The notes under the pieces: model-generated
What the model was told of the DNA's origin: nothing
What the model saw: only the letters and a program-made list of their open reading frames with translations
Databases searched by the model: none
Shown here: one piece after another, positions 18,203 through 59,844 of the stretch
How positions within the stretch are numbered: position 1 is the first letter of the stretch
Layout: each line of letters starts with the position of its first letter
Made by a program: the position numbers and the translations under genes
Assembly: GCA_042576345.1 (NCBI GenBank)
Contig: JBHPCE010000001.1
Span: forward strand, 1-61,831
Source of the DNA: Candidatus Babelota bacterium
Lineage (GTDB): Bacteria > Babelota > Babeliae > Babelales > GCA-2401785
Direction of reading: 5' to 3'
DNA length: 61,831 nucleotides

Positions 18203-20605
18203 TCACTTCTTTTTTGAAGAACTCTTTTTCGTTGCCACCTTTTTCTTTGAAAAGGGTGATTTTACCAAAGTTTCTTTTAAAACCTCGTCCATAGTTTTGA
18301 CATAAACAATTTTGATGTCGCCACCAAGCTCTTTTTCGAATTCCTTGATGTCATTTTTGTTTTCCTCTGGAACTATCACTGTTTCAAATCCCAGGCGTCT
18401 TGCAGCCAAAAGCTTTTCTCTTAAACCGCCCACAGGAAGCACTCTTCCGCGCAATGTAACTTCTCCAGTCATTGCAATTTTGTCTTTTACTGCAATTTTG
18501 GTCAAAACAGAAGCTATCGCCGCACCAATTGTTATACCAGCAGAAGGACCGTCTTTTGGAATTGCGCCTTCTGGAATATGAATGTGAATATCCGAGCCAG
18601 AATAAAAATCAGTTTTTACACCTAGTTCTTTTGCTATGGCCCTTATGTAACTGAGCGCAGCCTGGGCCGACTCGTGCATAACCTCTCCAAGCTGTCCTGT
18701 GACAGTTAACTCGCCCTTACCCTTGAAAAATGTAACTTCCACTTCTAAAACGTCGCCGCCAACCTCTGTCCAAGCAAGTCCAGTTGCAACGCCACAGACG
18801 CCTTTTGTGAAAGTATGATGTGCTTTAAAATGAGGAGCTCCAAGCCATTCTTCCAATTTTTTTTCTGTGATGACAACTTTCTTGGGAGGCTTTTCTCCAA
18901 TTAAAAGCTGAATTGCTTTTCTGTAAAGCTTTGCGATCAGTCTTTCCAACTGACGCACTCCAGCCTCTTTTGTGTACTCTTTGATAACTTTTTTGACAAT
19001 GGCATCAGAACATTGAACTTGAGCAGGTTTTAAATCGTATTGCTTCAAAAGTTTTGACATCAGATGCTTTGTTGCAATTTCTAACTTTTCCTCCTGTGTG
19101 TAGCCAGAAAGATAAACAATCTCCATCCTATCAAAAAGAGGAGCCGGAATGTGATCCATAACATTTGCGGTTGTTACAAAAAGAACCTTAGAAAGGTCAT
19201 ATTCAACTTCTACAAAGTGATCCACAAAGCCTTTATTTTGCTCGGGATCCAAAACTTCCAACAATGCCGATGCGGGGTCTCCCCTCATGTCCGAAGACAT
19301 CTTGTCCACTTCGTCAAGCAAAATAAGCGGATTGATAACTTTTGCTTTTTTCATTGCCTGGACAATTTTGCCAGGCATTGCACCTATGTAAGTTCTTCTA
19401 TGGCCGCGTATTTCCGCCTCATCTCTAACACCACCAAGTGAGATCCTGACGAACTTTCTACCCATCGCCTTGGCAATAGATGCGGCCAAAGAGGTTTTTC
19501 CAACACCAGGAGGGCCAACAAGGCAAATTATTGGCGCACGTTCAAGCTTTTCTCCAGCAAACTTTTTGGCCGCCAAAAACTCAATAATCCTTTCCTTGGC
19601 CTTCTTCATGCCAGAATGAGTGGAATCTAAAATTTCTTCTGCCTCAGCCAAGCCAACCTTGTCTTTTGTCTGCTTGTACCACGGCACAGAGGTCAGCCAG
19701 TCAACAAAATTGCGACTCACAGCCGCTTCCGGCGATGATGCAGGCATTTGCTCCAACCTTCGGCATTCCGAAAGTACTTTTTCCTTAGCCTCTTCTGGCA
19801 ACTTTAATTTTTTAACCTTTTTCCGCAAACTCTCTATTTCCTGAGTGATATCTTCTCGCCCAAGCTCACGCTGTATTGCCCGGATTTGCTCGTTGAGATA
19901 ATAATCGCGCTGATGTTTTTCGATCTGACTTTGAACTCTTTTGCGCACACTCTTTTCGGCCTTAAAAACCTCTATTTCGTTCTGAATTAAGGCACATAGA
20001 TGTATTGCTCTTTCTTTAACATCAAGCATTTCCAATAGATTTTGTTTTTCCTTAAAATCCATCTGAACATGAACAGCAACCGAATCGACCAGCGTTTCAA
20101 GATCACTTACAGATTTCAGCGGTGTTAAAGCATCCGGAGAAATTCTATCGTTGTAGGACACATATTCTTTGAATGACAGGAAAATGCGCCTTGAAAGGGC
20201 CTTACGCTCTGTAGCACTCTCCACACCAATAGACTCAACGTCTTGTACAACAGCGTCCAGATAATCTTCTGCATCACCCGGTTCTATGACCCGCGCGCGC
20301 CTAATTCCCTCGACCAAGAGCTTCATTGTGCCGTCTGCATCCTTTTTCATCTGCAAAATCACAGCACGAGTTCCATACTCATAAACATCAGAAACTTTGG
20401 GTCTGACAACCTCACTCAATTTTTGAGACGTCAAAAAGACAGCCCTATCACTCTTGAGCGCCTCTTCAACGGCTCTCACAGAGATATCGCGGCCCACTCG
20501 GACCGGCAAAATCCCCTTTGGGAGCGCCACAACGTTTTTTAGAGGCAAAATGGGAAGAAGCCTTCCCTGAAAAACTTGATCTTTTTTTTCTGCATCTTTA
20601 GGCAT
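18203..20605 (-). CDS. lon: ATP-dependent Lon protease (LonA), copy 2
   Basis: It carries GPPGVGKTS, LILLDEVDK, PKDGPSAGIT and GGLREKLLAARR. The RBS AAGGAA lies upstream. The C-terminal tail is K-rich. Confidence 0.95.
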   Translation of the reverse strand: MPKDAEKKDQVFQGRLLPILPLKNVVALPKGILPVRVGRDISVRAVEEALKSDRAVFLTSQKLSEVVRPKVSDVYEYGTRAVILQMKKDADGTMKLLVEGIRRARVIEPGDAEDYLDAVVQDVESIGVESATERKALSRRIFLSFKEYVSYNDRISPDALTPLKSVSDLETLVDSVAVHVQMDFKEKQNLLEMLDVKERAIHLCALIQNEIEVFKAEKSVRKRVQSQIEKHQRDYYLNEQIRAIQRELGREDITQEIESLRKKVKKLKLPEEAKEKVLSECRRLEQMPASSPEAAVSRNFVDWLTSVPWYKQTKDKVGLAEAEEILDSTHSGMKKAKERIIEFLAAKKFAGEKLERAPIICLVGPPGVGKTSLAASIAKAMGRKFVRISLGGVRDEAEIRGHRRTYIGAMPGKIVQAMKKAKVINPLILLDEVDKMSSDMRGDPASALLEVLDPEQNKGFVDHFVEVEYDLSKVLFVTTANVMDHIPAPLFDRMEIVYLSGYTQEEKLEIATKHLMSKLLKQYDLKPAQVQCSDAIVKKVIKEYTKEAGVRQLERLIAKLYRKAIQLLIGEKPPKKVVITEKKLEEWLGAPHFKAHHTFTKGVCGVATGLAWTEVGGDVLEVEVTFFKGKGELTVTGQLGEVMHESAQAALSYIRAIAKELGVKTDFYSGSDIHIHIPEGAIPKDGPSAGITIGAAIASVLTKIAVKDKIAMTGEVTLRGRVLPVGGLREKLLAARRLGFETVIVPEENKNDIKEFEKELGGDIKIVYVKTMDEVLKETLVKSPFSKKKVATKKSSSKKK

Positions 20606-21033: not shown

Positions 21034-22437
21034 ATGAACAATTATGGCCAAGAGAATGTAAGTCAAACTTCAAAACAAGGTTGGTTTAAGCATATTTGGC
21101 CATTCACAGGCGTTGAAAGCCAAAGAACCTTTTACTTCTCAGTTATCTTTTCATGTATCATTTTCTCTTATTCGATAATAAAACCACTCAAAGACACCAT
21201 TTTCATAGGCTTTATAGGCCCATCTTATCTTCCTTGGGCCAAACTTTTGATGCTGGCATCTCTGCCAATCTTCATGCCCCTTTATTCAGCCGCTGACAAC
21301 AAAGAAAAAAGAAATCGTGCGATAATGATTTTTAGTACATTCTACGGCCTAGTTTGCCTTATATTCGCCGTACTTTTCCTGAGTCCAACGATGGGCATTG
21401 CAAACACAGCAACCGGCCCAGGCAGAATTCTTGGATGGATTTTTTATGCAATAATGGATTTTTTCTCGATAGCAGTTGTTGCAACTTTTTGGGCCATGAT
21501 CAACTCTATCAGCACCCCAAACACGGCTAAAAAACAATATGGTATAATGGTTGCAGCCTCTAGAGGTCTTGGTGCGATAGCTGCCGGCCTTGGAACCGTC
21601 CTTACCTGGATAGGCATAAAAGACACAACATCTATCCCAACTATGATTGCTCTTGCCGGCATAAGCCTTGTTTTATGTACATTTTTAGCACACAAGATGT
21701 TTAAAAAGATCCCTCAAGATCACTTAAAAGGATACTCCGACGAACACGAAAAAGATAAAAGCAAATCATCAGTACCGAAAAACGCCTGGTCAAACCTAAA
21801 GACCCTTGTCACAAGGCCATATACATTTGGAATGTTCTGGCTTTTGTGTAGTTTTGAATTAATTTCTGCTTTGATGAACTACAGGATGCAATGCCTCATT
21901 GCACAATCTGCCAAAACAATCGGTGGAATCGGCAAGTTCATGTTTGCCTACACCTTTATTTTCCAAATTTTGGGACTTCTACTGGCTCTTTTTGGAACGA
22001 CAAAACTTCTCAAAAATTTTGGAGTCAGGTTCAGCCTTTTACTAACCCCGCTTATTGTTCTTTTACTCTCGTTCAGCCTAGTTTTCCTTAACAATTTGGC
22101 TGTGATAACAACATTAATGATATCGCTCAGAACACTTAACTACAGCCTTGATGTACCTGTTAAAGAAATATTATTTATCCCAACAACCCACAACATTCAA
22201 TATCAGGTTAAAGGCTGGATCGCATCTTTTGGAAAAACAATCTCAAAAACCACCGGTTCTTTGTTTAACGGCATAGCCGCAACTGCTTCTGCAAGAATTT
22301 TCTTGCGGACAGTAACGTATGCGCCCATTGTTTTAAGTTTTTTCTGGATTTTAACCGCCTTCATCGTTGGCAAAACATACAAAAAAGCTATAGATGCAGG
22401 AGCTGTGATCGGAGAAGACGACGTATCCACGGAGTGA
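21034..22437 (+). CDS. Tlc/NTT-family nucleotide transporter (ATP/ADP translocase-like), copy 1
   Basis: It is a polytopic protein of 467 aa. The N-terminal SIIKPLKDTIF corresponds to the LRSIKDGF box of Rickettsia Tlc. FWAMINSISTPNTAKKQYG corresponds to FWQFANQIT..EAKRFY. The C-terminal IP....KG.I..FGK...K..G box is also present. Confidence 0.65.
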   Translation: MNNYGQENVSQTSKQGWFKHIWPFTGVESQRTFYFSVIFSCIIFSYSIIKPLKDTIFIGFIGPSYLPWAKLLMLASLPIFMPLYSAADNKEKRNRAIMIFSTFYGLVCLIFAVLFLSPTMGIANTATGPGRILGWIFYAIMDFFSIAVVATFWAMINSISTPNTAKKQYGIMVAASRGLGAIAAGLGTVLTWIGIKDTTSIPTMIALAGISLVLCTFLAHKMFKKIPQDHLKGYSDEHEKDKSKSSVPKNAWSNLKTLVTRPYTFGMFWLLCSFELISALMNYRMQCLIAQSAKTIGGIGKFMFAYTFIFQILGLLLALFGTTKLLKNFGVRFSLLLTPLIVLLLSFSLVFLNNLAVITTLMISLRTLNYSLDVPVKEILFIPTTHNIQYQVKGWIASFGKTISKTTGSLFNGIAATASARIFLRTVTYAPIVLSFFWILTAFIVGKTYKKAIDAGAVIGEDDVSTE

Positions 22438-22515
22438 AAAGTTTAGATTCATGATTAAGTCCCAGCTTGCAAAAAACAACTCAGCAAAACTTTAATACAA
22501 CGCAGGAGAATAAAG

Positions 22516-23898
22516 ATGATAATCAAGAGGATAACTGAGCTCATAAAAAAACTAAGATCTTTAGACAAAGAAACTGCTAAAAAAATAATTTATCTCTCAT
22601 CAATTTATGCCCTTCTGATCTTCACATATTCCACCATCAGGCCAATTAAAGACGCCATATTCCTGGCAATGGTCGGAGCAAAGTTCCAACCAATTGCAAA
22701 ACTTGCAGTGATGGCCTTTTCGCCATTTTTTATAATTTTCTACTCAGCCATTGTCACAAGGATGAACCGAAAAAGGGCTTCTATGTCGCTCATAGGCGGA
22801 TATGCTGCCGCCTGCATCGCCCTTTCCTTAGCGTGCCTTCACCCTGTCCTTGGTATTTTGAACACTATAACGTCGCCATTCAGAATTTTAGGTTGGACAG
22901 CATACGCACTATTTGACATGTATCCTTTGGCCGTTATGACTTGTTTTTGGGCCCTTACAAGCTCAATCAGCACGCCAGACAAAGCCAGCACCCAATACGG
23001 CATAATGTCTGCCACATCAAGATTGGGCGGAATAATTGCATCAGGTTTTGGTTACATCGTAATGAAAAGTTCAATGCCAGTATATGCCACAATACCCGCA
23101 CTTACAGCGCTTTCTGGAACAATGCTTTTTGCAACCACTCTTCTGATCAAATCTATGTTCAAAAACATAAACAAAGAAAATCTAAAAGGTTACACTGATC
23201 AGAAAGCTGGATCGCCAACCAAAAGAAAAAAACCCGGTCTCTTAGAAGGTCTCAAGGCTGTTGTCAGAGAACCTTACGCATTCGGGATATTCACAATATT
23301 TTGTTCTTACGAGCTTATTTCAGCACTGGCAACGTTTAGAACTCAATGTTTGATCACGGCCCAGACGGCTCATTCAATGCAAAAAATAGGTTCCTACGTT
23401 TTTGGATACACTTTTATTTTCCAATCAATCGGCTTTTTCATAGCTCTTTTTGGAACAACCACTTTGCCAAAAAAACTTGGTATGAAAATCAGCCTTCTCA
23501 TAACACCAGCAATATTATTTATCTTTTCAGCAGCTCTTATCGGCAACCTAAATTTATACTCTTTGACCGCAATGATGATCGCCATGAAGGCCTTAAATTA
23601 CGGTTTTAACATACCGGTACGTGAAATGCTCTTCATCCCAACAAGCCGAAACATCCAGTTTATGGCAAAGGGCTGGATCGACTCATTCGGAAAAACCTTC
23701 AGTAAAGCCACAGGATCTGTAATGAACTTGGCTTCGACAATGCCACACCTATCTTCCCTTTCCGTAATGCTCGCGCCCATATCTCTAGCAATCAGCGCAG
23801 TCTGGGGCATCATCGCAATGGCTCTTGGAAACAAGTTCCAAAATGCGGTCAAAAAATCAGAGGTTATAGGACAAAAACAGCCAAAAAAGACACATTGA
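22516..23898 (+). CDS. Tlc/NTT-family nucleotide transporter, copy 2
   Basis: It is a paralog of the preceding gene (STIRPIKDAIF, FWALTSSISTPDKASTQYG, FIPTSRNIQFMAKGWIDSFGKTFSKATGS). Confidence 0.65.
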   Translation: MIIKRITELIKKLRSLDKETAKKIIYLSSIYALLIFTYSTIRPIKDAIFLAMVGAKFQPIAKLAVMAFSPFFIIFYSAIVTRMNRKRASMSLIGGYAAACIALSLACLHPVLGILNTITSPFRILGWTAYALFDMYPLAVMTCFWALTSSISTPDKASTQYGIMSATSRLGGIIASGFGYIVMKSSMPVYATIPALTALSGTMLFATTLLIKSMFKNINKENLKGYTDQKAGSPTKRKKPGLLEGLKAVVREPYAFGIFTIFCSYELISALATFRTQCLITAQTAHSMQKIGSYVFGYTFIFQSIGFFIALFGTTTLPKKLGMKISLLITPAILFIFSAALIGNLNLYSLTAMMIAMKALNYGFNIPVREMLFIPTSRNIQFMAKGWIDSFGKTFSKATGSVMNLASTMPHLSSLSVMLAPISLAISAVWGIIAMALGNKFQNAVKKSEVIGQKQPKKTH

Positions 23899-23915
23899 AG
23901 CAATCGAAAAAAAAT

Positions 23916-23944
23916 TTTACATCTCAAAAAATACATGTTATTAT
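23916..23944 (+). promoter_or_regulatory. Conserved promoter box A (TTTACA-17-TATTAT)
   Basis: The sequence tttaca tctcaaaaaatacatgt tattat recurs almost unchanged at 25114-25142. Confidence 0.5.
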
Positions 23945-24097
23945 ACCTATCGAGTTACAAACGTATAAAGTCTATTTTACTACTGCGTTTCATGAGCTTA
24001 ATTATTAAAAGGCTCCGCCACTCAACAGTTTTGGCATAGAGATAATCCAGAAAAATGTAAAAAAAATATATCGACGTTTTAAAAAAGGAAAATTATC

Positions 24098-24835
24098 ATG
24101 TATCTGAAAAATAAATCATTTTCACTTCTGTCATTTCTTCTGATTGCATTTTCTACTGGTTTAAAACCAAAGGAGGTCACAAATGATCAAGAAAAATGGA
24201 GACGCATAGCAAAATATTTGGTTTGTAAAGACGAAGTTATAAGTTACGCAAAAAGTTATGGAACAAAGTGGGGCGCAGTTATTCTTGCCCTTTCAACATC
24301 ATCTTTAACCATATTAGTGTATAAAGCATTTCTTATTAAAAATTTATTTAAAGATGCGGTCTTACCTAGACAACCTAATGATCAAAACTCAATTTTAAGT
24401 AATATTCCTCCCAGCATAGCAATCGCTGCTATACCATTTTCTATTTTCAGTGTAATTGGCGCAATCGCAGGAAGATATGGAGCCGGCAAAACCGCCTCTA
24501 AGTCTATCGATAAGATTAAAACCAATCGCATTAAAAAACTGTTTTTTCGAACAGAAAGGTGGCTTGAAAAAAACACTCCTGAAGAGGTAAAAACCTTAAT
24601 CATAAAATACAAGGAAACTGCAGACGTACGCCCAATAGAAGATCAAGATTTTATACTAATTTCAAATAAAATAGAAAAACTGTGGGAAGAAAATTCTCAA
24701 AATGAAGATAATTTGGCTGAATTGACTGAAAAGGAAATAGATGAATTAAGAAAAGATATTTGGACGGTATTTCGGAATGCATTGTTTATCGGCTCAAATA
24801 ACAACGGCAATGGTTTTAAGCTTACTTTTCTGTAA
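24098..24835 (+). CDS. Hypothetical membrane protein with a hydrophobic hairpin
   Basis: It has a signal-like N-terminus and two hydrophobic segments (AVILALSTSSLTILVYKAFLI ... IAIAAIPFSIFSVIGAIAG). The RBS AAGGA lies upstream. Confidence 0.6.
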   Translation: MYLKNKSFSLLSFLLIAFSTGLKPKEVTNDQEKWRRIAKYLVCKDEVISYAKSYGTKWGAVILALSTSSLTILVYKAFLIKNLFKDAVLPRQPNDQNSILSNIPPSIAIAAIPFSIFSVIGAIAGRYGAGKTASKSIDKIKTNRIKKLFFRTERWLEKNTPEEVKTLIIKYKETADVRPIEDQDFILISNKIEKLWEENSQNEDNLAELTEKEIDELRKDIWTVFRNALFIGSNNNGNGFKLTFL

Positions 24836-25113
24836 AAATTTTGTTGTAGGTAACCCTTCGCACCACCCAATCCACATAGCTATAAAAAAAATACGGAATT
24901 CCGATTTTAGCGGACCGTGGAACCAGCTGCTACACGGCAAATCAGGCGCTACGCAACAAGATAAGGGAGGCAGTTCAACACTCTACTTTTGCTCTACACA
25001 AAACGTGTAAATTAAAGAAGGACTGTTTTCGCCCTCGTATTTAACGGTAAAGCCATGCAAAATCATTCAGATCAAAGCTCTGGTAAGTGACTTACGGAAG
25101 CAGAAAATAACAT

Positions 25114-25142
25114 TTTACATCTCATAAAATGTGTGTTATTAT
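25114..25142 (+). promoter_or_regulatory. Conserved promoter box B (TTTACA-17-TATTAT)
   Basis: The sequence is tttaca tctcataaaatgtgtgt tattat. Its flanks are also similar to those of box A. Confidence 0.5.
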
Positions 25143-25188
25143 GCATATTGAGTAGTTTTCTAGTTGAGTTTTTAAGAAAGAACATGGA

Positions 25189-25908
25189 GTGGTTGACATG
25201 AAGATGAAAAATATATTTATGGGCATTATTGCGATATTCCTTTCACAAAACATAATCAAAACAACAGAACCATCCCCCTTGACAGTACTTAAAGAGGATG
25301 GAATAAATTTACAGGAAGCGGAAGACATAAGTTCTCGTTTAAATTTGCAACAAAAAATAGATGCGACCAAACAAATCATTAAATCTAGGAGTTCGGCTAC
25401 TGTTACATTTAAACTTAACGGAAAGTTTTACTTCTTTACGCCATTTACAAAAAAATGGTACGTAATTGGATCGTCAAAAGAAACTTCCGAACTTAATGAT
25501 GATGATCTAAAAGAAATCTCTGAGAAAGAATTGCAAAAACTCATACCACCAACAATTATTGGATCGCCAAAAGAAATTTCCGAACTTAATTTCGAAAACG
25601 TTACCTTAGGCTCACTAAAATCACCCTACGCTCTCCTTACAGCCTCGGGAATTTTAATCCCTGTGGGAACGTTAATCTACTACATTATAAAATCAAAAAA
25701 TAAAGGCATGGGCGATAAAATTAAACAAGCGTTCAGAAAATTGTTAAGAAACAAGATTCTGCTTGCATCTTCACTGACACTTTTGACTGTAGGAATCGGC
25801 TCCAAGTGCCTCAACAGAGTGTTCGAAAGTGAAGGGCCATGTAAAACATTTGTTGATTTCATGAACAAGCCATTGGAAGGCTGGAAGAAGTCTGGCGATG
25901 ACGACTAA
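25189..25908 (+). CDS. Secreted/membrane protein, family member A, with a shared C-terminal hairpin module
   Basis: It has a signal peptide and an internal repeat (GSSKETSELN / GSPKEISELN). The C-terminal module ENVTLGSLKSPYALLTASGILIPVGTLIYYIIKSKNKGMGDKIKQ... is shared with 26244-27020. The ATG at 25198 may be the true start. Confidence 0.65.
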   Translation: MVDMKMKNIFMGIIAIFLSQNIIKTTEPSPLTVLKEDGINLQEAEDISSRLNLQQKIDATKQIIKSRSSATVTFKLNGKFYFFTPFTKKWYVIGSSKETSELNDDDLKEISEKELQKLIPPTIIGSPKEISELNFENVTLGSLKSPYALLTASGILIPVGTLIYYIIKSKNKGMGDKIKQAFRKLLRNKILLASSLTLLTVGIGSKCLNRVFESEGPCKTFVDFMNKPLEGWKKSGDDD

Positions 25909-27020
25909 TCAAAGAATCTTTTTAGTTTTGGCCTTTGGCGCTTTTACGTTGGGATTGAGGGCGACTGACGAAACACAAAGCCTCATAGAACAAATAAAAC
26001 GTTGCCAAGACTTCACGAAAACCGAAGGAAAAAGTACTGAAAAGATTTTTAAAAGTATGAATCCGGGCCAAAAGGTTACGTTGGAAGGCGATCTTACCAT
26101 TTACAGAATCAGTGTTGGTGGAAAACCTAAATATGCCCTTAAAGCAAACTATGATGAAAGCGATTTCGCCCTATATGATAATTTAGATGATTTAAGAAAA
26201 ATATTCACAGAAAGTAACTTTCCAAGTATAAAATCTCAAATACATGTACAACACGATAACTCCCCCCCCCCCAAAAATTGGATTTAACATTACTGTTGAC
26301 GGAATAGATTTTTCATGCCAGGGAAACCAAAAACGTGAATGGGATGTTTTTGAAAATGAAGTTAAAAGAAAGCCAACCTATAAAGAACTTTTACTCATAA
26401 CAGAAAAATGCATTTCCTTATCCAAAGCTCATAAATATTACAGAATATTCACTCCAAAACTTCCAATATCCTTTCACGGAAATCCTTTCGTTCATCTCGG
26501 GTTTAAGCCGCCAAAGCCAAAGCCAAAGCCAAAGCCAAAGCAAGAGCCAGCAGATGACGATACTGATAAGGCGCCTCTAGAAAACGTTACCTTAGGCTCA
26601 CTAAAATCACCCTACGCTCTCCTTACAGCCTCGGGAATTTTAATCCCTGTGGGAACGTTAATCTACTACATTATAAAATCAAAAAATAAAGGCATGGGCG
26701 ATAAAATTAAACAAGCCCTCGGCAAACTTGTCAAAAACAAAATTGCACTCCTATCCTCACTCACACTTTTGACCGTAGGAATCGGTTCAAAATGCCTCAA
26801 TGGAGTGTTTTCAGATGAAGGACTATGCAATACCGTTTTTGATTTCATGAACACACCTCTGGGAAGCTCAAAGAAGTCTGAGGTAGGTAGACTCGAAGAA
26901 TTTGAAGATTTATACCCAGAAATTACCACTGGCCCCATTGGTGGTGGCTTACATGACGATAGTGATAACTCACGTCTTCTTCACGGTGAAGAAAATACAG
27001 AGTACGCTGATCAAAGTTGA
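25898..27020 (+). pseudogene. Family member B, split into two ORFs (25898-26287 and 26244-27020) by a C11 homopolymer. It is either a phase-variable gene in the OFF state or a homopolymer sequencing error.
   Basis: The first ORF has a signal peptide (MTTNQRIFLVLAFGAFTLGLRA) and ends ...HDNSPPPKNWI*. The second reads ...TPPPPKIGFNITVDG... and lacks its own signal peptide or RBS. A run of C10 or C13 would fuse them in frame. Confidence 0.6.
26262..26272 (+). repeat. Homopolymeric C11 tract
   Basis: Counted directly: t26261, then 11 C, then aaaaa. Confidence 0.95.
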
Positions 27021-27034
27021 CTCTAAGAGTAACC

Positions 27035-27583
27035 CTAAATCGCGCATAGCCCTAGCAATGCCACAATGCTTGCAAGAACTGACTTTCTCCAAACACAAAC
27101 ATCGTCGCGCGACTCGTAGATAAAAATTCCATGATTACCATATTTCATTGGCCAACCAATTGTGCTTGGATTTTCTATTTCAAACTCGCTCAATATTTTT
27201 GAATGATCACTTTTTTGGCGGTTAAGGCTACAAGACTTAAACGACCTGACGTTTTTGTTGAACGTCAGGTCGTTCATCGTTTTTGCCGATTCTACGGGAT
27301 TTTTCCAGACATCATCCGGGGGAGCCTCAAACTCTCCATGATGAAATCCTGCAATTCCATGAAGACAGTCAAAGTCGGGGTTGTCGACAAGATAGGCCGC
27401 TTTCTTAAGACCAAACCTTCCAGGGTTGGAAATGTCATACAGCACCAACTGCGCAAGACCATCGACGTGATGATTTTGAACAATTTTATGCGGCAGGGCC
27501 AAAATGCCGTCCACAAGGCCACGTTCGCTGGCGCTCAGTATATCGCCGCGATCTTTTACTGCATCCATTTCCTTTTCCCCCAA
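27035..27583 (-). CDS. Hypothetical protein with a hydrophobic C-terminal tail
   Basis: The ORF is 182 aa with no recognised motif. Confidence 0.5.
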   Translation of the reverse strand: MGEKEMDAVKDRGDILSASERGLVDGILALPHKIVQNHHVDGLAQLVLYDISNPGRFGLKKAAYLVDNPDFDCLHGIAGFHHGEFEAPPDDVWKNPVESAKTMNDLTFNKNVRSFKSCSLNRQKSDHSKILSEFEIENPSTIGWPMKYGNHGIFIYESRDDVCVWRKSVLASIVALLGLCAI

Positions 27584-27675
27584 ATAGACACATCACAAAG
27601 TGTATAAGATGCGCCCTAAAAACAACACTCGAATATTAACACCTTTTCCCTTGTTAAAACAACAAACTGCCATTT

Positions 27676-29193
27676 TTAAATAGCTACTCTTACAGCCTTT
27701 TCTTCTTCAACAACCTTCACCATTGAGTCGACAAGTTTGTTAAGCCCAACGGCTCTAGAAGCTTTAACCAAAACAAGAGCACCTGGCTTCATAATTTTGC
27801 CCAACAGCTCCTTTGCATCTTGTACACTTTCTACAGTTGTAGTCCTTAAAGTAATCGGTACAGTCTTTGCTACAAATTTTGCCCTCTCACCTATCAAAAT
27901 TACGTGAGAAAAACTTCTAACGTGTCTGAAAACCCTACCAACCTGGCGATGCCAAAAAATCTCTTTCTCGCCAAGTTCAAGCATGTCTCCAAGAACTGCT
28001 ATTTTCTGTTCCGCATGCATTGCATCAACAGCCTCTAAAGCTGCCCTCATGCTTTCCGGACTCGCGTTGTAGCAATCGCTTATAATCAAACTCTTTCCGT
28101 CAGCCGACAGTCTTGTTTCAAACCTTTCTGGTACACCAGAAAATTCTTGAACTGCAGCGATAATTTTAGCATCTTCAACCCCAAGAACGGTTGAAACCGC
28201 CATTGCTGCAAGAGAATTTTGTACAACACCTTCGTGCCAACCCTTTAATGAAACTTCAACTCTCGTTTTGTAAAGTTTAAGCCTGAAATTCGTTTTATAC
28301 TCTCCCTCATCCGACCTGACACGCCTCACTTTTCTAGCCTGAACCTGATTTTTTGTCTTTTGACCAAATTTAACAACCGGGCACAGAAACGACCTTTCTG
28401 CAAGCTCAGCCTGATCTCCGTTTACAACGCCAATATCCGTAGCCCCAAAATTTTTGAAAAGCTGACACTTTTCTATGGCAACTTCTGATGTCGACTCCAA
28501 ACCCTCAAGATGGTTATGTGCAACGCAGGTCACAGCACCTATTGTCGGTCTTAAAAGATCTGCAATTTGCGCCATCTCTCCCTTTGAATTGATCCCGATT
28601 TCAAAAACCCCAACTTCGTGCTCAGGATTCATCTTAAGAATAGATAAGGAAACGCCTAAAATCGTATTGTAGTTTCCTCTAGAGACTAATGCTTTTTTTT
28701 CAGCTTTTTTCAAAATCAACTTGACCATCTCTTTGGTTGTTGTCTTACCCAGTGAACCAGTTATTCCAACTATTGGGCATGTAAACGTCGATCGCCAAGA
28801 ATATGCTAGCTTGATCAGAGATTGAACTGTCGATTCCACACAGATTATCAATTTTCCGTGCAACAATTTTTCTGGAACATCATTTAAAAAATTTAGGCCT
28901 GATTTTTCGATAATCAAACCGGCCGCTCCAGATTTTAGCGCTTGCAATATAAACAAGTGTCCATCAACACGTGCGCCTGGAATGGCACAGTAAATTTCTC
29001 CTTTTTTTATTGTACGACTATCTATCGAAAACTCACACCCAAGACCGGAGTCGCTCTCTAATTCAATCTCCGTTTTACTACACTCACTACAGCTGCAACT
29101 TTTCAGACCACTCCGCTCACCGTCACCACCGAGCCCAATCCAAAAATCTGAACCTTCGAGCACAGCCTTGAGAAAATCCCCCATAATCCTCAT
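27676..29193 (-). CDS. murF: UDP-N-acetylmuramoyl-tripeptide--D-alanyl-D-alanine ligase
   Basis: It carries GITGSLGKTTTKEM and DCYNASPESMRAALEAV, the MurF-type C-terminal motif. Confidence 0.85.
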   Translation of the reverse strand: MRIMGDFLKAVLEGSDFWIGLGGDGERSGLKSCSCSECSKTEIELESDSGLGCEFSIDSRTIKKGEIYCAIPGARVDGHLFILQALKSGAAGLIIEKSGLNFLNDVPEKLLHGKLIICVESTVQSLIKLAYSWRSTFTCPIVGITGSLGKTTTKEMVKLILKKAEKKALVSRGNYNTILGVSLSILKMNPEHEVGVFEIGINSKGEMAQIADLLRPTIGAVTCVAHNHLEGLESTSEVAIEKCQLFKNFGATDIGVVNGDQAELAERSFLCPVVKFGQKTKNQVQARKVRRVRSDEGEYKTNFRLKLYKTRVEVSLKGWHEGVVQNSLAAMAVSTVLGVEDAKIIAAVQEFSGVPERFETRLSADGKSLIISDCYNASPESMRAALEAVDAMHAEQKIAVLGDMLELGEKEIFWHRQVGRVFRHVRSFSHVILIGERAKFVAKTVPITLRTTTVESVQDAKELLGKIMKPGALVLVKASRAVGLNKLVDSMVKVVEEEKAVRVAI

Positions 29194-29388
29194 CGCGTAC
29201 TATTCCTTCCAAAAAAATAAATTTAAAAAATGTACATATAAAACTCAAAACTCAATTGCTCCATACTGAAAAACTACGTAGTTACGCGCCGCTGTCAAGG
29301 GGTATGCACATTACAAAAACACTAAAATCGACCCTTTGCCCCTATCTTTGAGCCATAAAAATCTTGAAAAATAAATAAAAAACGTTGT

Positions 29389-31152
29389 TTAGAGCACCTT
29401 ACGAGGCTTACTACCTTGCGCTGGAGCTACAATTCCTTCTCGTTCTAGCTGATCAATTATTCTGGCAGATCTATTAAAACCTATTTTTAATTGTCGTTGC
29501 AGCATTGAAATCGAAATTTCATCCCTAGATTTTACAAACTCAACGGCATTTCCATACAAATCGTCCAACTCATCCACCTCAAAACCACTTCCCAAAATTT
29601 CAATATCTTTCAGCTCAACATAATTCGGAATGGCTGCTGCGCGTAAATAACTAGCCAAGCGCTCAACCTGATCACCTAAAACAAATGAACCGTGCAACCT
29701 ACGCAGGTACGGTACCGAAGGATGCATGAAAAGCATATCACCACGTCCAATCAACTTTTCTGCACCTGACGCATCCAAAATTGTCCTAGAATCAACTTTT
29801 GACGAAACTCTAAAGGCAATCCTGCTTGGAAAATTAACTTTTATTAAACCGGTCACAACGTCGACAGATGGACGTTGCGTGGCGACAACCATGTGTATCC
29901 CTGCAGCACGAGCCATTTGAGCAATTCTTACTAAATATCCTTCAACATCTCTTCCACCAATCATCATAAGGTCGGCAAGTTCATCTACAACAACCACAAT
30001 AAAGGGCATCTTTTCAAATTCATCATCACAACCCAAAACTTCTAATTTTTCTTGATACTCAGAAATATTACGAACACCCAACTTTGCCATAAACTCGTAT
30101 CGACGCTCCATTTCGAAGGACAGCCACTTGAGCGCACTTGTAGCTTTTTCGACATGGGTAATTACAGGAAAAAGAAGATACGGAATGTCGTAGTACGGCG
30201 CAAATTCAAGACGCTTTGGATCAATTAAAACTAACTTCAACTCATCAGGATTTTTTGACATCAAAAGACTGGAGATTATTGAGTGCATACACACCGACTT
30301 TCCAGACCCAGTTGAACCTGCAACCAAGAGATGAGGCATTTGGGAAAGATCTTCTATTACGGGTTGTCCAACACCATCGGCACCCAAAACCAAAGGAAGC
30401 TTTGCTCTATTTTTTTGCCATACTGGTGAACACAAAAGTTCATCAAAAAATACACTCTGAGGTTTTTTATGAGCAATTTCAAATCCAACAGCATTTTTCC
30501 CGGGAATCGGCGCCAAAATTCTGACACTCATAGCCGTCATGGCCATTGTCAAATCATCTTCAAGCGCCAAAATTTTACTTATTTTCGTCTCTGCAGCAGG
30601 CCTGTACTCAAATTGAGTAATGACCGGTCCTGGCCTGATTGCGGTAATTTTTCCTTTTATTCCAAATTTTCCGAGCTTTTCTTCCAAAAGTTTTGCCAAA
30701 TTTTCAGCCTCTTCCATATCAACGCAAATTTCACTGTCACGGCTGCACCGACTCTGCAAAATAACATCAATATCGGGCGGCAGTTTAACACCACTTTCCA
30801 GAACCATTGAACTATGAGCGGATTTCGTCTTTCTCTGAGCCTTTTTTGCAGGAATTCTCTTAACCTGTTTTGTCGACGTTTTTGAAATCGAAACATCATC
30901 AAATATGTAGACAATTTTGGGCCAAACAAAACTAAACAATTGCCACAATCTTATGGGCAAAATTACAAATTCGAACATCATAAAATTTATAACAAACATG
31001 AGAGGCCGCAAAAATAACCAAGCAAAAGAAAAGAAGACAAAAGTTAAAACTCTAAAAATTCCCCAAGAAATTTTACAGATTATCTTCCAAAGGAAAAGTA
31101 AAAAAATTGTTTCCCAATCATTTCGGTAAGCCTGTCTTTTTCTGCGTGACAT
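29389..31152 (-). CDS. ftsK: DNA translocase FtsK/SpoIIIE
   Basis: It has N-terminal TM segments, Walker A VAGSTGSGKSV, Walker B VVVVDELADLMM, and ATQRPSVDVVTGLIKVNFPSRIAFRVSSKVDSRTILD. A C-terminal gamma-like domain is present. Confidence 0.9.
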   Translation of the reverse strand: MSRRKRQAYRNDWETIFLLFLWKIICKISWGIFRVLTFVFFSFAWLFLRPLMFVINFMMFEFVILPIRLWQLFSFVWPKIVYIFDDVSISKTSTKQVKRIPAKKAQRKTKSAHSSMVLESGVKLPPDIDVILQSRCSRDSEICVDMEEAENLAKLLEEKLGKFGIKGKITAIRPGPVITQFEYRPAAETKISKILALEDDLTMAMTAMSVRILAPIPGKNAVGFEIAHKKPQSVFFDELLCSPVWQKNRAKLPLVLGADGVGQPVIEDLSQMPHLLVAGSTGSGKSVCMHSIISSLLMSKNPDELKLVLIDPKRLEFAPYYDIPYLLFPVITHVEKATSALKWLSFEMERRYEFMAKLGVRNISEYQEKLEVLGCDDEFEKMPFIVVVVDELADLMMIGGRDVEGYLVRIAQMARAAGIHMVVATQRPSVDVVTGLIKVNFPSRIAFRVSSKVDSRTILDASGAEKLIGRGDMLFMHPSVPYLRRLHGSFVLGDQVERLASYLRAAAIPNYVELKDIEILGSGFEVDELDDLYGNAVEFVKSRDEISISMLQRQLKIGFNRSARIIDQLEREGIVAPAQGSKPRKVL

Positions 31153-31705: not shown

Positions 31706-33160
31706 ATGAACAGAAGCGTAACGCGCTTGCTCGCAGCCGCGCTCTTAGTCAGTACTGCGGCTATCGCGGGATCGAAGACGGAAACAAACCGTCCCTTTAT
31801 AAACACAAAGGACTTCAGAAACAGAGTGGAATCATTAACAATATTCCACAAAGCTCTGGCTTACGAGTCAGACAAGTTAATCGGCGGCAATGTACAAGTT
31901 GTGCCATTTTATCTTCAACAAAAAGATTCATCACGAGATGAACTTGGTAAGGGTTTCGGTGTAGACCACCTACAAAACATTATATTCGATGATGCAACGG
32001 GAATTGCTGCCGCACCCTCTACCAATGGCTACGTGGATGCTGGTTATCTAATTCACGAGGAAGACAGCTCCACAGACGGTACTGCATACAGCAAACTAGA
32101 AATAAAACCGAGACACAAAGCATATGGTGTAAACGTCGACTACTGCCACAAACTAGACGAACTTGCAGATGGACTGTGGTTCAGAGTTTGCACAGGTCTT
32201 GTAAAAGTAGAACATTTACTTGGCCTTACATGGGCTTCAGAAGCACAGGTTGACACAACACACCCATATGTTTCTCAATACCTTGATGGCTCCACAGAAA
32301 CTACCGACGCTGCCGACTTAACTAAACTACTAACACACGGCAAGATGGATGGTGAAACTAGAGATGAGTCGGGTTTCAACGACGTTGAAGCAATGATTGG
32401 CTGGAACTTCGTTGAAAAAGACAATGCAAAAATGGCTCTTTCAGTCGGAATTGTAATTCCAACAGGTAACGAGCCAACAGCAGAATATCGTTTTGAACCT
32501 CTGTACGGCACACGCCACTTCCAATTTGGCGTTGGTCTTACAGGTTGTGGCACACTGTGGGAAAAAGACGAAAACAAATTTAAAGCTGTTTTCGATGCCC
32601 ACTACAGGTATGCATTTGAGCGTGAAGTAAAACGTTTGGTTGGTATTAAAGACACCGATTATGGCTTTTACTATCTCCTACAACAAACAGGCGCTGCAGC
32701 TGCGACAAAACTTATTCCTGCTGCCAACTTGCTGGCAATGGATCTTAAGGTAACACCTGGAAGCTCCTTTGATGGTACAGCAATGCTAACCTTCTGCTCC
32801 AAGTGGTTTGTAGTTGATGCTGGTTACAACTTTTATGGTTGCCAATCACAAAAACCAACCATAAAAGACTGGACAGACGACACCTACTACAAAGTAGATA
32901 AGGCGTACGATACAAGTGCAACATGGGCAACAAACGCCTCAGCACTTCAAGGTACAGCAATTAACAAAACCAATCTCGACAAAGACATCGACAGCCAGAT
33001 GATCCACAAAGTCTTTGCTGCGGCAGGCGTTGTAACCACCGAATGGGATTATCCTGTAACATTCGGAATTGGTGGTTCAATAGAGTTTGTCCAAGGAGCT
33101 AAGAAGCAAATTACACCTGCCAACTACGAAGTATTTGGCAAAGTTGGAATTTCCTTCTAG
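31706..33160 (+). CDS. Putative outer-membrane beta-barrel protein (porin-like), paralog 1
   Basis: The signal peptide reads MNRSVTRLLAAALLVSTAAIAG. The sequence is rich in aromatic/Gly alternation. It ends in a C-terminal Phe (FGKVGISF). Confidence 0.6.
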   Translation: MNRSVTRLLAAALLVSTAAIAGSKTETNRPFINTKDFRNRVESLTIFHKALAYESDKLIGGNVQVVPFYLQQKDSSRDELGKGFGVDHLQNIIFDDATGIAAAPSTNGYVDAGYLIHEEDSSTDGTAYSKLEIKPRHKAYGVNVDYCHKLDELADGLWFRVCTGLVKVEHLLGLTWASEAQVDTTHPYVSQYLDGSTETTDAADLTKLLTHGKMDGETRDESGFNDVEAMIGWNFVEKDNAKMALSVGIVIPTGNEPTAEYRFEPLYGTRHFQFGVGLTGCGTLWEKDENKFKAVFDAHYRYAFEREVKRLVGIKDTDYGFYYLLQQTGAAAATKLIPAANLLAMDLKVTPGSSFDGTAMLTFCSKWFVVDAGYNFYGCQSQKPTIKDWTDDTYYKVDKAYDTSATWATNASALQGTAINKTNLDKDIDSQMIHKVFAAAGVVTTEWDYPVTFGIGGSIEFVQGAKKQITPANYEVFGKVGISF

Positions 33161-33182
33161 GAAAACTCCTACAAAGTCTAGC

Positions 33183-33204
33183 GGGGCTGAAATAATTCAG
33201 CCCC
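33183..33204 (+). terminator. Hairpin 1 downstream of OMP paralog 1
   Basis: The sequence is GGGGCTGAA-ataa-TTCAGCCCC. Confidence 0.6.
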
Positions 33205-33230
33205 ACAGACATACAAAAAAGATACCATCC

Positions 33231-33263
33231 GAGGGTCGCAGTATGCGACCCTCAGATTTTTTT
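33231..33263 (+). terminator. Rho-independent terminator
   Basis: GAGGGTCGCA-gta-TGCGACCCTC forms a 10-bp stem. It is followed by agaTTTTTTT. Confidence 0.85.
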
Positions 33264-33675
33264 AAAAAAAATAGCAAAAATAACATTCCTAATTATTTTT
33301 TTTTCACCGTCCATAGGTGCCAAAACACAACTCTTAAAAATTAATTGCCAAATCTAAAAAACTTTAGCGGAACAACGCTTTTAACCCCTAAAAGTAATAA
33401 GACTTTTGCGAAAATTACGTATATCCTCTCCAGTGGAACTGATCCATGCAAAACCCAAACCCTTGTCAAGGTCTTAAAAGGGGTTTATGTTAATCGGCGA
33501 TCGTTCTATATCTTAGGGGAAAAGTCTTTGAAACAAAGGCAGATTAAAAGAGAGGAGGGAAAGAGCCCCTCCAGAATATTCGAGGGGCAAGGGTGTTGAG
33601 CATTATTTCTTCAAAAGTTGATTTCGGTCTTATAGGTCTTAGAAAATTTAAATTTTTATAGTTGGGGGATTTCGA

Positions 33676-35148
33676 ATGAACCGATCAATTTCGCGTTTGC
33701 TCGCGTCCGTGCTCATCGTAAGCTGTGCTTTCGTAGCAAATGCAGTAACAAGCTCGGAAACAAATAGCACCATGTTAAGACTAAGGGATTATCGTAACCG
33801 TGCCGAAATGGCAACAATATTTCACAAAGCAGTTGAACTTAAATCAGATGATAGAGCAAATGGCAACTTAGAAATCATGCCATTCTATCGTCAAACATAT
33901 CACAGGGATAAACTCGGTAAAGGTATTGGTGTAAACCACAAAAACACATTCACAATCAAAGACACAGCTGTTGGAACAGGCGTTGCAACTGCACCTGTAT
34001 CAGGGGCAGACGTCAACGGTGCATACTTAATTCACAAATTGGATGCTGCTGGTAGCTCATACTACACAACAGTAAACCTAAAACCAAAACACTATGCATT
34101 CGGTGCAAACATCGACTTCTTCATGAACCTAGACAACCTTGTAGAAGGTCTGTACTTTGACGTGAATACAGCTATTGCCAAAGCATACAACAAAGTTGGA
34201 TTGATTCTTAGCAGCACACAAAACGTTGCTACATATCCAACATGGGAAACCTACTTTACAGGAGCAGCTGGAACAGTCGCCAACAACGAACAAAATGCTC
34301 TTGCTAAAGCAAAACTGAACTATGACAGCTATGTAGATAAAGGCGGAGTTGAAGATCCAGAACTCTTGATCGGCTACAATTTTGTAGACAACGATTCAGG
34401 AAAAGTAAGCGTAAACGTCGGAGCTTCTATTCCAACAGGCACAGACCCAACACGCGAATACACATTTGAGCCTCTTGTAGGTAGCCGCCACTTCAAGCTT
34501 GGCCTTGGCCTTAAAGCTTGCGCCAATCTATGGGAAAGCGAAAAGGAAGGTGGAACAAAACAAGAGCTTAAAGCCGTGTTCGACCTCAACTATCGTTATG
34601 CCTTCAAACGCGACATGTTGTTAACTCCACGTCTCAAAGTTAATGGCACAGCAACACAATGGGGTCACTACTACCTCATAGGTGAAATTACAGCAGCAAG
34701 CACCACAGCATTCGATCCTGCAGCAAACATCATCACACTTACCTATGAAGTAAAACCAGGCAACATGTTTGATGGAAACGCCTTGCTTTCATACAGTCAT
34801 GGATGCTTTGTTGGAGACCTTGGTGTAGCAGTTGAATTTAAAGAGTCACACACACCAACACTAAAAAGCTCATGGGATGACACCAAATATGGTGTAGCAT
34901 ATGACGATTCAAGTCTTGCATCAGATGCCTTCACAACATCCGAGAGCGTTGCATTGCTTAAGGCTCACTTTGATCCAAAAATCGAAAGCATGTGCCTATT
35001 CAAAGTCTTTGCAGCAGCTGGTGCAGTTATGACCGACTGGGATTATCCTGTCACCTTCGGCGTTGGTGCTGACGTTGACATCGCAAGCAAACAGCAGATC
35101 ACTCCAGAAAACTGGAAGGTCTTCGGCAAGGTCGGCATTACCTTTTAA
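33676..35148 (+). CDS. Putative outer-membrane beta-barrel protein (porin-like), paralog 2
   Basis: It begins MNRSISRLLASVLIVSCAFVANA and ends FGKVGITF. It shares blocks with paralog 1 (NLEIMPFY, GAYLIH, EPL.G.RHF.LG.GL, KVFAAAG.V.T.WDYPVTFG.G). Confidence 0.6.
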   Translation: MNRSISRLLASVLIVSCAFVANAVTSSETNSTMLRLRDYRNRAEMATIFHKAVELKSDDRANGNLEIMPFYRQTYHRDKLGKGIGVNHKNTFTIKDTAVGTGVATAPVSGADVNGAYLIHKLDAAGSSYYTTVNLKPKHYAFGANIDFFMNLDNLVEGLYFDVNTAIAKAYNKVGLILSSTQNVATYPTWETYFTGAAGTVANNEQNALAKAKLNYDSYVDKGGVEDPELLIGYNFVDNDSGKVSVNVGASIPTGTDPTREYTFEPLVGSRHFKLGLGLKACANLWESEKEGGTKQELKAVFDLNYRYAFKRDMLLTPRLKVNGTATQWGHYYLIGEITAASTTAFDPAANIITLTYEVKPGNMFDGNALLSYSHGCFVGDLGVAVEFKESHTPTLKSSWDDTKYGVAYDDSSLASDAFTTSESVALLKAHFDPKIESMCLFKVFAAAGAVMTDWDYPVTFGVGADVDIASKQQITPENWKVFGKVGITF

Positions 35149-35215
35149 AAAAGGTACGCTGAGTTTCTACCGTCACGCAGTTAACTCTGCTGGCGGCGGA
35201 AGACCGAAATCAAAC

Positions 35216-35249
35216 AAAGGGTCGCTCTGTGCGGCCCTTTGTTATTTTT
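35216..35249 (+). terminator. Rho-independent terminator
   Basis: AAAGGGTCGC-tctgt-GCGGCCCTTT forms a stem with one G.T pair. It is followed by gttaTTTTT. Confidence 0.75.
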
Positions 35250-35351
35250 CACCCAATCACCTAACCTCCAATTATTGCATTACCCAAACACCCTCCAGTA
35301 GGCTTTTTTGCGTCACTTTTAGCTCTTAAAGAAAACTGGAGGCAAAGCAAA

Positions 35352-37893: not shown

Positions 37894-39297
37894 TTGGTTA
37901 TGGGAACAAGGGCAGGAGGCCAAATTTCACAAAAACCAGGTTCTGGCAAGGGCGAAAATTATACAAAAATAATTCGATACTGGATACCCGAACTTTTGTC
38001 ATCGACACTTCTCTTTTCGCTTCCCTTCATCCTGGACGCATATTTTGTTGCAAAACTTAGATCCACATCAACCTATGGAGCCCTTGGTGTTGCAAGCTCC
38101 CTTATGCACACTTTGATGAAGTTTTCAGAAGCAATCATGGTCGCTTCAGTTTTTATCATCGGAAAACACAATGGAGCAGGTAACCAAAAAGAGTGTGGTA
38201 AATCTCTAGGAGACGCTTTCTGGAGCACCGTCATCCTTGGCTCCATACAATTCGTAGCAGTTTTTTCGGCATCTAGCCACTTTTTTCACTGGGTTGGGGT
38301 GTCTGAAAAAATTGCAAGAGTTGGAATTCCGTTTCTTAAAATTCAATCATTGGCAGTATTTTTTGCCTTTATTTTCCAAGCTTTCTTAGGTTTTTTCAGA
38401 GGTGTTAAAAACACGAAAACTCCTTTTTACATCAACTTAATTGGCGTTGCCGCATTCATACTTCTGGACTACCTTTTCATTTTTGGAAAATTCGGCATCC
38501 CAGAAATGGGCCTAATGGGATCAGCAATAGCCTCGCTTGCAAGGTTTTTTCTTCTCACAATCATTGCAGTCGCATACATCCTTGTTTCAAAAAAATACAG
38601 GGCATACTTTGATCAATCTTTTTTCAGATCTTGTAGACCAAAAAACATGATAAAACTTATAAAATTAAGTATTCCCGTAATGCTCGACAAAACAGCTCTT
38701 GCAACATCATACATTTGGCTTTTTAAAATGGCTGCTCCTCTTGGAACACTGGCACTTGCATCGATGAACGCGATATACAATCTTGAACGTTTCGCATTTT
38801 TGCCGGCAATCGCATTTGCCCAAATTGTCACATTCTTGGTCAGCAACAGCCTTGGCGCAAAAGATTATAAATCGGCACAGGAAAATATAAAAAAAGTACT
38901 TTTTCTCTCCATGTTCTTTGTCATGGTTGCGCTTGCTGTACTCTGCTGGAATGCAGAGCTTTTTATTGGAATATTCGACCATAAATGTGATTTTACTGCT
39001 TTTGCCGCATCGGCTTTAACCATCCTGAGCCCTCTTGTTGCATTCGACTTGTTGCAACTGATTTTTGCAGCATCGCTCAGAGGCGCCGGAAACATGAACA
39101 CCGTCATGTGGACACGCATCATAGGCTGCGGGCTTTTCTTTGTTCCCCTCTCAAGGTCAATTCACTGGCTCCCCATTACGGACGAATGGGTCAAGTTTGT
39201 GCTCATCTACGGCACTTTCTACCTTAACACAGCTTTAATGTCCCTGGTTTTCATGATCAAAATCTGGAACAACGGCTGGGATAAGAAAGAACTTTAA
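37894..39297 (+). CDS. MATE-family efflux transporter
   Basis: It has 12-TM-like hydropathy. The MATE-type N-terminus reads IIRYWIPELLSSTLLFSLPFILDAYFVAKL...ALGVASSL. The ATG at 37900 is an alternative start. Confidence 0.7.
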   Translation: MVMGTRAGGQISQKPGSGKGENYTKIIRYWIPELLSSTLLFSLPFILDAYFVAKLRSTSTYGALGVASSLMHTLMKFSEAIMVASVFIIGKHNGAGNQKECGKSLGDAFWSTVILGSIQFVAVFSASSHFFHWVGVSEKIARVGIPFLKIQSLAVFFAFIFQAFLGFFRGVKNTKTPFYINLIGVAAFILLDYLFIFGKFGIPEMGLMGSAIASLARFFLLTIIAVAYILVSKKYRAYFDQSFFRSCRPKNMIKLIKLSIPVMLDKTALATSYIWLFKMAAPLGTLALASMNAIYNLERFAFLPAIAFAQIVTFLVSNSLGAKDYKSAQENIKKVLFLSMFFVMVALAVLCWNAELFIGIFDHKCDFTAFAASALTILSPLVAFDLLQLIFAASLRGAGNMNTVMWTRIIGCGLFFVPLSRSIHWLPITDEWVKFVLIYGTFYLNTALMSLVFMIKIWNNGWDKKEL

Positions 39298-59772: not shown

Positions 59773-59844
59773 TAGGTATTGAACTTCAAATTTCAAAGTA
59801 GGTGGTAGTCAAATCCGCAAACATAACAAAAAAAACATAACCCC

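Follow-up and report, generated by a model that had tools for sequence, protein, structure and literature searches.

A C11 homopolymer probably splits a gene for a predicted exported membrane protein in a Dependentiae bacterium: a candidate contingency locus

We analysed a window of 61,831 nucleotides (nt), which is the entire contig JBHPCE010000001.1 of a metagenome-assembled genome (MAG) labelled Candidatus Dependentiae bacterium (locus tags ACFLY6_). A pure run of eleven cytosines (C11) at positions 26262-26272 of the plus strand, with T on its left and AAAAA on its right, lies where two open reading frames (ORFs) meet. ORF1 (25898-26287, plus strand, frame 2; ACFLY6_00120, MFC1854261.1) encodes 129 amino acids (aa), and ORF2 (26244-27020, plus strand, frame 0; ACFLY6_00125, MFC1854262.1) encodes 258 aa from an ATG at 26244; GenBank lists each of them as a hypothetical protein. 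We conclude that ORF1 and ORF2 are very probably the 5' and 3' parts of one gene that is split at the tract, because the coding signal switches frame there, because only the fused product has a consistent topology and follows the plan of a neighbouring paralogue, because ORF2 lacks a Shine-Dalgarno (SD)-like motif and a promoter-like site, and because C11 is unique among the homopolymers whose length we altered in silico. The GenBank entry of two hypothetical proteins is, in all likelihood, a mis-annotation of this one gene. The tract makes a plausible candidate for a contingency locus, of a kind that is already known, and we give about even chances to the reading that it mediates real, reversible phase variation.

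ORF1 reads through the tract as GAT AAC TCC CCC CCC CCC AAA AAT TGG ATT TAA, and its stop codon (TAA, 26285-26287) ends 15 nt past the run. The ATG of ORF2 lies 18 nt ahead of the run, and the closest upstream stop in frame 0 is at 26229; the tract lies between this stop and the one in frame 2 at 26285. The two ORFs overlap by 44 nt only (26244-26287), centred on the tract. The initial annotation of this DNA, which described an uninterrupted C11 run at 26262-26272, an exact overlap of the ORFs across it, and fusion into a protein of about 370 aa at C10 or C13, is borne out on all of these counts. In silico, a C10 tract gives a single ORF of 373 codons and a C13 tract one of 374 codons, so that the reconstructed gene spans 25898-27020 on the plus strand; C12 leaves the ORFs unfused, and at both C11 and C12 translation terminates shortly past the tract. 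The deposited sequence is in the OFF frame, and deletion of one C extends the open frame from 262 to 384 codons.

In a codon-usage scan, positive log-likelihoods lie in frame 2 before the tract (from 25890) and in frame 0 after it (as far as 27020), and the remaining frames across the locus carry 1-7 stops per 30 codons. There are 121 open codons on one side of the tract and 249 on the other, and no second lesion was found in them. The tract itself is located at codon 122 of 373, 33% into the gene, and the peptides predicted in frame 0 include IGFNITVDGIDFSCQGNQK. The gene has three of the features by which a contingency locus is recognised, namely an over-long tract, a frame that is toggled by one unit and an otherwise intact coding sequence.

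No SD-like motif was found in the 25 nt ahead of the ORF2 ATG, although most genes with an ATG start in the window have one. Ahead of ORF1 and of ORF2 we found no promoter-like site comparable to that of the paralogue described below. The N-terminus of ORF1 starts with MTTNQR and contains a hydrophobic stretch at residues 6-22 (nt 25913-25963), with R before and LRATDE after it, and hydropathy analysis shows that such a stretch is absent from ORF2. Hydropathy and the SD scan agree with the initial annotation, in which ORF1 had a signal peptide and ORF2 had neither a signal peptide nor a ribosome-binding site.

Hydropathy further places two hydrophobic helices in the fused protein, at residues 240-259 and 282-300, which correspond to transmembrane (TM) helix 1 at about nt 26616-26675 and TM helix 2 at about nt 26742-26798 on the plus strand, both within a C-terminal module that is shared with the paralogue. 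The loop between the helices is 21 aa long and basic (7 K/R versus 1 D/E), and the C-terminal tail is acidic (5 K/R versus 16 D/E). By the positive-inside rule the loop would be cytoplasmic and the large N-terminal region exported. A large N-terminal region on the outside needs a signal peptide, which is located on ORF1; by itself, ORF2 would have to export about 125 residues with no signal peptide of its own, and thus only the fused product is topologically consistent. The predicted protein begins with a Sec-type signal peptide, followed by about 215 aa that are exported, the (KP)n linker, a two-helix hairpin with a basic cytoplasmic loop, and finally an acidic exported tail. The linker (KPPKPKPKPKPKQEP) is encoded by a hexanucleotide repeat, (GCCAAA)x6.7, at 26510-26549 of the plus strand (period 6, 91% matches). 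It is the second simple-sequence repeat of the split gene, and a change in its copy number would keep the frame. Judged by hydropathy, the product may be located at the surface or face the host. No Pfam (E ≤ 0.01) or NCBIfam domains were found in the protein, and an AlphaFold2 single-sequence model of the fused form (pLDDT 40, pTM 0.20) was judged unusable.

The NCBI pipeline calls ACFLY6_00120 and ACFLY6_00125 as separate genes, and ORF2 does have an ATG at 26244. On that account, a small secreted protein of 129 aa and an independent membrane protein of 258 aa would happen to overlap at the tract. We regard this arrangement as highly improbable. ORF2 is devoid of an SD-like motif, a promoter-like site and a signal peptide, yet its topology requires that its roughly 125 N-terminal residues be exported; an overlap of 44 nt centred on the only C11 of the contig would be an extreme coincidence; and the paralogue holds both functions in one ORF.

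This paralogue, ACFLY6_00115, is located directly upstream (25198-25908, plus strand, 236 aa), and in one ORF it joins a signal-peptide-like N-terminus and a unique N-domain to the shared two-helix module. The N-domain of ORF1 has no similarity to that of the paralogue, so it is the signal peptide and the shared module that carry the argument from a common architecture. In the split gene the module occupies 26580-26879 of the plus strand and runs through helix 1, the loop and helix 2 into the acidic tail; its paralogous counterpart at 25594-25893 shows 85% identity over 300 nt (about 83% at the protein level), in line with the shared C-terminal hairpin that the initial annotation had assigned to ORF2. 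In a 312-nt alignment of the two copies, the first 137 nt are identical (25594-25730 versus 26580-26716), and 53 differences follow. The divergent part of the module differs by about 30%, with a synonymous divergence (Ks) of about 0.98 and a ratio of nonsynonymous to synonymous divergence (Ka/Ks) of about 0.26, against a Ka/Ks of 0.33 for the module as a whole. These values indicate that the module has long been under purifying selection, and 137 identical nt beside a strongly diverged remainder indicate a recent gene conversion between the copies, confined to the first TM helix and the loop; Ka/Ks bears on the past only, and neither signal dates the frameshift.

The ATG of ORF1 (25898) lies 11 nt inside the paralogue, of which the stop overlaps the ORF1 start, and this overlap suggests that the paralogue and ORF1 are co-transcribed and translationally coupled. 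Ahead of the unit, at 25114-25142 of the plus strand, is a strong promoter-like site (TTTACA, a 17-nt spacer and TG-TATTAT, with an extended -10 TG and a score of 10/12), which may function as a promoter, given its match to the consensus. A copy of the site is found at 23916-23944, ahead of the gene at 24098-24835, and both are contained in a 49-nt repeat (23907-23955 and 25105-25153, 82% identity). The gene at 24098-24835 itself has a similar plan, with a signal peptide and two helices, and no sequence similarity. We assign the split gene to a small, lineage-specific, tandemly duplicated family of which two members are seen.

The C11 tract is not a compositional accident, as is evident from shuffled sequences, control loci, the distribution of run lengths and the rarity of the codons involved; it was either selected or grown by slippage-driven expansion. 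A C11 run occurred in none of 100 dinucleotide-preserving shuffles. Apart from the long tracts, C runs in the window reach at most 7 nt and G runs at most 5 nt, and the number of C runs falls about four- to five-fold with each extra base. In 1.32 Mb of control sequence (80 unrelated MAG loci, which had been fetched for another purpose) there are no G/C runs of at least 10 nt and three runs of 9 nt. The tract in the frame of ORF1 is TCC CCC CCC CCC, encoding S-P-P-P. In 27 long ORFs (13,561 codons), CCC is the least-used Pro codon (12.9% of Pro codons), TCC is a minor Ser codon (12% of Ser codons), and PPP does not occur at all. For the residues S-P-P-P, codon usage would yield a C run of at least 10 nt with a probability of about 0.12 × 0.129² = 0.002. 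The remark in the initial annotation that long G/C homopolymers are conspicuous in this sequence thus holds for C11, which is an outlier in the window and absent from the shuffles and the control loci.

We altered 130 homopolymers of the window by one-base in-silico indels, and only at C11 does the change fuse two ORFs within a gene. Four further homopolymers that were flagged lie at or near gene boundaries or are intergenic, and runs of A8, A9, T8 and T9 sit within intact ORFs of 800-1039 codons. The conserved genes of the contig give full-length Pfam matches. We consider the consensus quality to be high, because the other 129 homopolymers (5-9 nt) are free of internal frameshifts and the conserved genes are full length. 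A general unreliability of the assembly at homopolymers was rejected, since none of the other runs among the 130 causes an internal frameshift. A chimeric join at the tract was also rejected, by inference: no assembly k-mer is as short as eleven bases, and the gene keeps a continuous architecture from one side of the tract to the other.

A local error at C11 is a separate matter. Long G/C runs are the most indel-prone sequence on all sequencing platforms, C11 is the longest C run in the contig, the frameshift amounts to exactly one base, and the gene is otherwise intact, as would be the case if the true tract were C10 (or C13), the gene whole and the extra C a miscalled length. The clean record of the other 129 homopolymers and of the full-length conserved genes speaks against such a miscall, and we think it unlikely. 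Moreover, even a true C10 in a coding region stays hypermutable, and is as such compatible with phase variation.

The only other long G/C run in the contig is a G14 at 59672-59685 (context 59517-59800, minus strand). Read on the minus strand it is a C14, inside a C-terminal remnant of about 80 codons of an IS30-family transposase (match to NF033563, E = 1e-8, profile positions 235-267 of 267). The C14 reads PPPP in frame, where a conserved motif has been replaced in part, and it is followed by an in-frame TAG. Because frame and spacing are kept across G14, the tracts are unlikely to be random assembly joins. The presence of G14 in dead DNA also means that long G/C tracts in this genome are not confined to working genes for surface proteins, and it slightly weakens the case for a selected switch at C11.

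G14 in the transposase remnant with its in-frame TAG is relevant to another explanation, in which slippage in a neutrally expanded tract has inactivated one copy of a redundant family and the frameshift has become fixed, making the split gene a young pseudogene. The paralogue directly upstream provides the redundancy, its family is specific to the lineage and situated in a variable region, and Dependentiae genomes are reduced (PMC4776705). Set against this are the presence of only one lesion in 370 codons, the coding signal that is intact on both sides of the tract, and the 137 nt of perfect identity with the paralogue, which point to recent gene conversion. We place this explanation, too, among the unlikely ones.

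We propose the following mechanism for phase variation at C11. Slipped-strand mispairing during replication would add or remove a single C in TCC-CCC-CCC-CCC at high frequency. A tract of 10 or 13 C would give the complete protein, exported and anchored in the membrane (ON); with 11 or 12 C, translation would reach a stop 4 to 13 codons past the tract and yield a secreted stub of 129 aa or similar length (OFF). The deposited consensus would then represent an OFF majority, and the population would be expected to be a mixture of lengths. The initial annotation had called the locus a candidate phase-variable (contingency) locus and had pointed to long G/C homopolymers as classical switches of this kind in surface-protein genes of host-adapted bacteria. 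One gene with a frameshifting tract and a host-dependent context are both supported here; length heterogeneity, reversibility and a selective benefit are properties that we infer for the locus, the first two being decisive for a contingency locus.

Several points weigh against phase variation. The evidence consists of one consensus sequence with a single tract length, and a one-base miscall of that consensus may have occurred in an 11-base run. Since the protein is an orphan, statements on its conservation, function and surface location are predictions. Phase-variable tracts tend to be enriched toward the extreme 5' end of genes and the N-termini of proteins (PMC3315296), and the C11 tract, at codon 122 of 373, is not at the extreme 5' end. 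The position of G14 in a dead IS30 remnant raises the possibility that tract growth may be a neutral mutational by-product and that the split gene could just as well be decaying. Finally, protist hosts are without adaptive immunity, and a rationale of immune evasion is not obviously applicable to them.

A further possibility is that the C11 form is expressed by recoding, either because RNA polymerase slippage produces some C10 transcripts or because ribosomes make a +1 shift on CCC-C at a poly-proline stall, in which case the frameshift would be tolerated or regulatory. The shift needed from frame 2 to frame 0 is indeed +1, and the P-site tRNA-Pro can re-pair from CCC to CCC throughout the run. 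Slippage by +1 at CCC-N and stalling at PPP are documented in Escherichia coli and Salmonella, and homopolymer frameshifts in endosymbionts are rescued by transcriptional slippage, there at poly(A); known transcriptional slippage is most efficient on A/T runs. The slippery CCC-C is present, and the stimulators of a programmed +1 frameshift were not found: there is no stimulatory RNA structure in the 100 nt downstream (z = -0.25) and no SD-like element upstream of the tract, and the zero-frame stop is located 4 codons past the tract rather than adjacent to it. Orthologues in which conservation of the site could be seen were not found either. Recoding as the explanation of the locus is very improbable, and if present at C11 it would be a low-level leak rather than a designed mechanism.

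The split-gene protein is an orphan, and there is no second assembly of the locus in the collections searched. The fused protein, compared with 5.8e9 proteins, matched only two proteins of the same contig, and ORF1 alone matched only itself. An exhaustive phmmer search with ORF2 against 1.84e9 representatives returned itself, the paralogue and one protein of 1316 aa with cadherin-like repeats. We rejected the latter as spurious, because it consists of 13 summed weak matches to residues 3-42 of ORF2, a region that includes the out-of-frame N-terminus, and because BLASTP gave no alignment of the 1316-aa protein to the in-frame sequence. Exact look-up showed no contigs on record that encode the proteins of the locus, a DNA pattern that joined the two flanks of the tract through a gap of variable length had 0 matches in genome contigs and 0 in metagenome contigs, and a back-translated search of JGI metagenomes with the fused protein found none. 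The two nearest genomes, as judged by MurF, are distant (56% and 46% MurF identity), and neither has an orthologous locus. A block of FtsK, MurF and a hypothetical protein of 182 aa is kept in both of them (27035-31152, minus strand, in the window; 28-2194 in L001 and 7561-11928 in L002), and the genes past the 182-aa gene are unrelated and differ in every genome compared. The split gene, just past the block, is therefore located at a synteny break, in lineage-variable DNA.

The host-adapted context is real, as deduced from the Dependentiae origin of the contig, the two TLC ATP/ADP transporters that adjoin the locus, and a SET-domain protein. Dependentiae (TM6) are inferred protist parasites that are host-dependent and have reduced genomes and ATP/ADP translocases (PMC4776705). 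The window has a G+C content of 40.5%. Its housekeeping genes encode two Lon proteases, FtsK, a MurF-like ligase, Dus, MreC, GrpE, two HtrA-like proteases, a class-I peptide-chain release factor (PCRF and RF-1 domains) and an amidase-family protein. The transporters are the two TLC ATP/ADP transporters, a nucleoside transporter, MatE and an alanine symporter, a set typical of host-dependent bacteria, and the eukaryote-like candidates are the SET-domain protein and a protein with pentapeptide repeats and a hydrophobic segment at its N-terminus. The TLC genes (21034-22437 and 22516-23898) are in tandem and together span 21034-23898.

Three families are duplicated within this 62-kb contig of a reduced genome: Lon, with two full-length copies at 5423-7789 (plus strand) and 18203-20605 (minus strand); TLC; and the HtrA-like proteases, with tandem copies at 52196-53731 and 53775-55472 (both minus strand). 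Four large plus-strand ORFs (484, 490, 820 and 1038 aa) occupy 31706-37814 and 39430-42546, with the MatE transporter gene (37894-39297) between the third and the fourth, and none of the four has a Pfam match at E ≤ 1e-5. A direct repeat of 173 nt (57767-57939 versus 59855-60027, 93% identity) partly duplicates the 3' end of the SET-domain gene (59845-60672, minus strand), and its two copies bracket the pentapeptide-repeat gene (58091-59488) and the IS30 remnant, a layout that suggests a rearrangement associated with an insertion sequence. Beside the SET-gene fragment, in a gene-poor region, is a 34-nt inverted repeat (57577-57610 and 57708-57741), with arms that are 91% complementary and 97 nt apart.

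The locus resembles the contingency loci of Campylobacter jejuni, Helicobacter pylori, Neisseria and Haemophilus in that the gene encodes an exported or membrane protein and contains, in its N-terminal part, a pure G/C run of at least 8 nt. The genome is moderately AT-rich and otherwise lacks such runs, and a one-base change toggles between full-length and truncated products. In contrast to those loci, the split gene is known from one consensus sequence, belongs to an uncultured parasite of protists rather than of animals, and encodes an orphan; its tract lies at 33% of the length, whereas theirs lie in the first few dozen codons.

The closest match in lifestyle and gene-family context is provided by the pmpG paralogues of Chlamydia, in which polyG/polyC tracts of 8-24 nt switch paralogous exported-protein genes (PMC6740158). 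As in that group, the bacterium is obligately intracellular, an expanded family of lineage-specific paralogues of exported proteins is arranged in tandem, the tract lies in an ORF, the frameshifted copy is otherwise intact, and turnover of paralogues or gene conversion has left its signs. The two groups are not related in sequence or domains: the family here has two members and an anchor of a two-helix hairpin instead of a beta-barrel, and the protein does not belong to the Chlamydia Pmp family (GGA(I/L/V) and FxxN repeats and the PF03797 autotransporter domain), since it has no Pfam match at E ≤ 0.01 and no homologues in the protein searches. The Cpn1054/ppp family of Chlamydia pneumoniae is a further example with polyG/polyC tracts. 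Chlamydial Inc proteins, with their bilobed hydrophobic domain, are comparable to the split-gene product as orphan proteins of intracellular bacteria in which two hydrophobic helices lie close together; they differ in having a short turn and a type III signal, in place of the 21-residue basic loop, the position near the C-terminus and the Sec-type signal peptide seen here, and there is no homology. In the insect endosymbionts Buchnera and Blochmannia, frameshifts at poly(A) tracts are rescued by transcriptional slippage. These cases likewise combine a frameshift at a long homopolymer, an otherwise intact gene and a reduced genome of a host-restricted bacterium, but they concern poly(A) rather than poly(C) and a genome-wide excess of A/T runs rather than a lone outlier.

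Our literature searches found no paper that links Dependentiae with phase variation or homopolymeric switches. We speculate, with slightly less confidence than we place in phase variation at C11 itself, that Dependentiae may have independently evolved Chlamydia-like poly-C contingency loci in tandem, gene-converting families of exported membrane proteins, and that the locus described here may be the first example, hidden by its annotation as two hypothetical proteins. If C11 is a miscall or the gene a pseudogene, the value of the finding is limited to the local annotation. If the tract varies, the phylum Dependentiae (TM6) would have its first reported phase-variable gene of the simple-sequence type. 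The case also illustrates that intrinsic evidence is enough to recognise candidates for contingency loci in MAGs, where read pile-ups over long G/C tracts merit routine inspection. Poly-C switches would create heterogeneity at the host interface, which could affect host range, evasion of uptake or digestion, or phage resistance. Contingency switching would then operate with protist hosts as well, and its rationale would be wider than the evasion of adaptive immunity.

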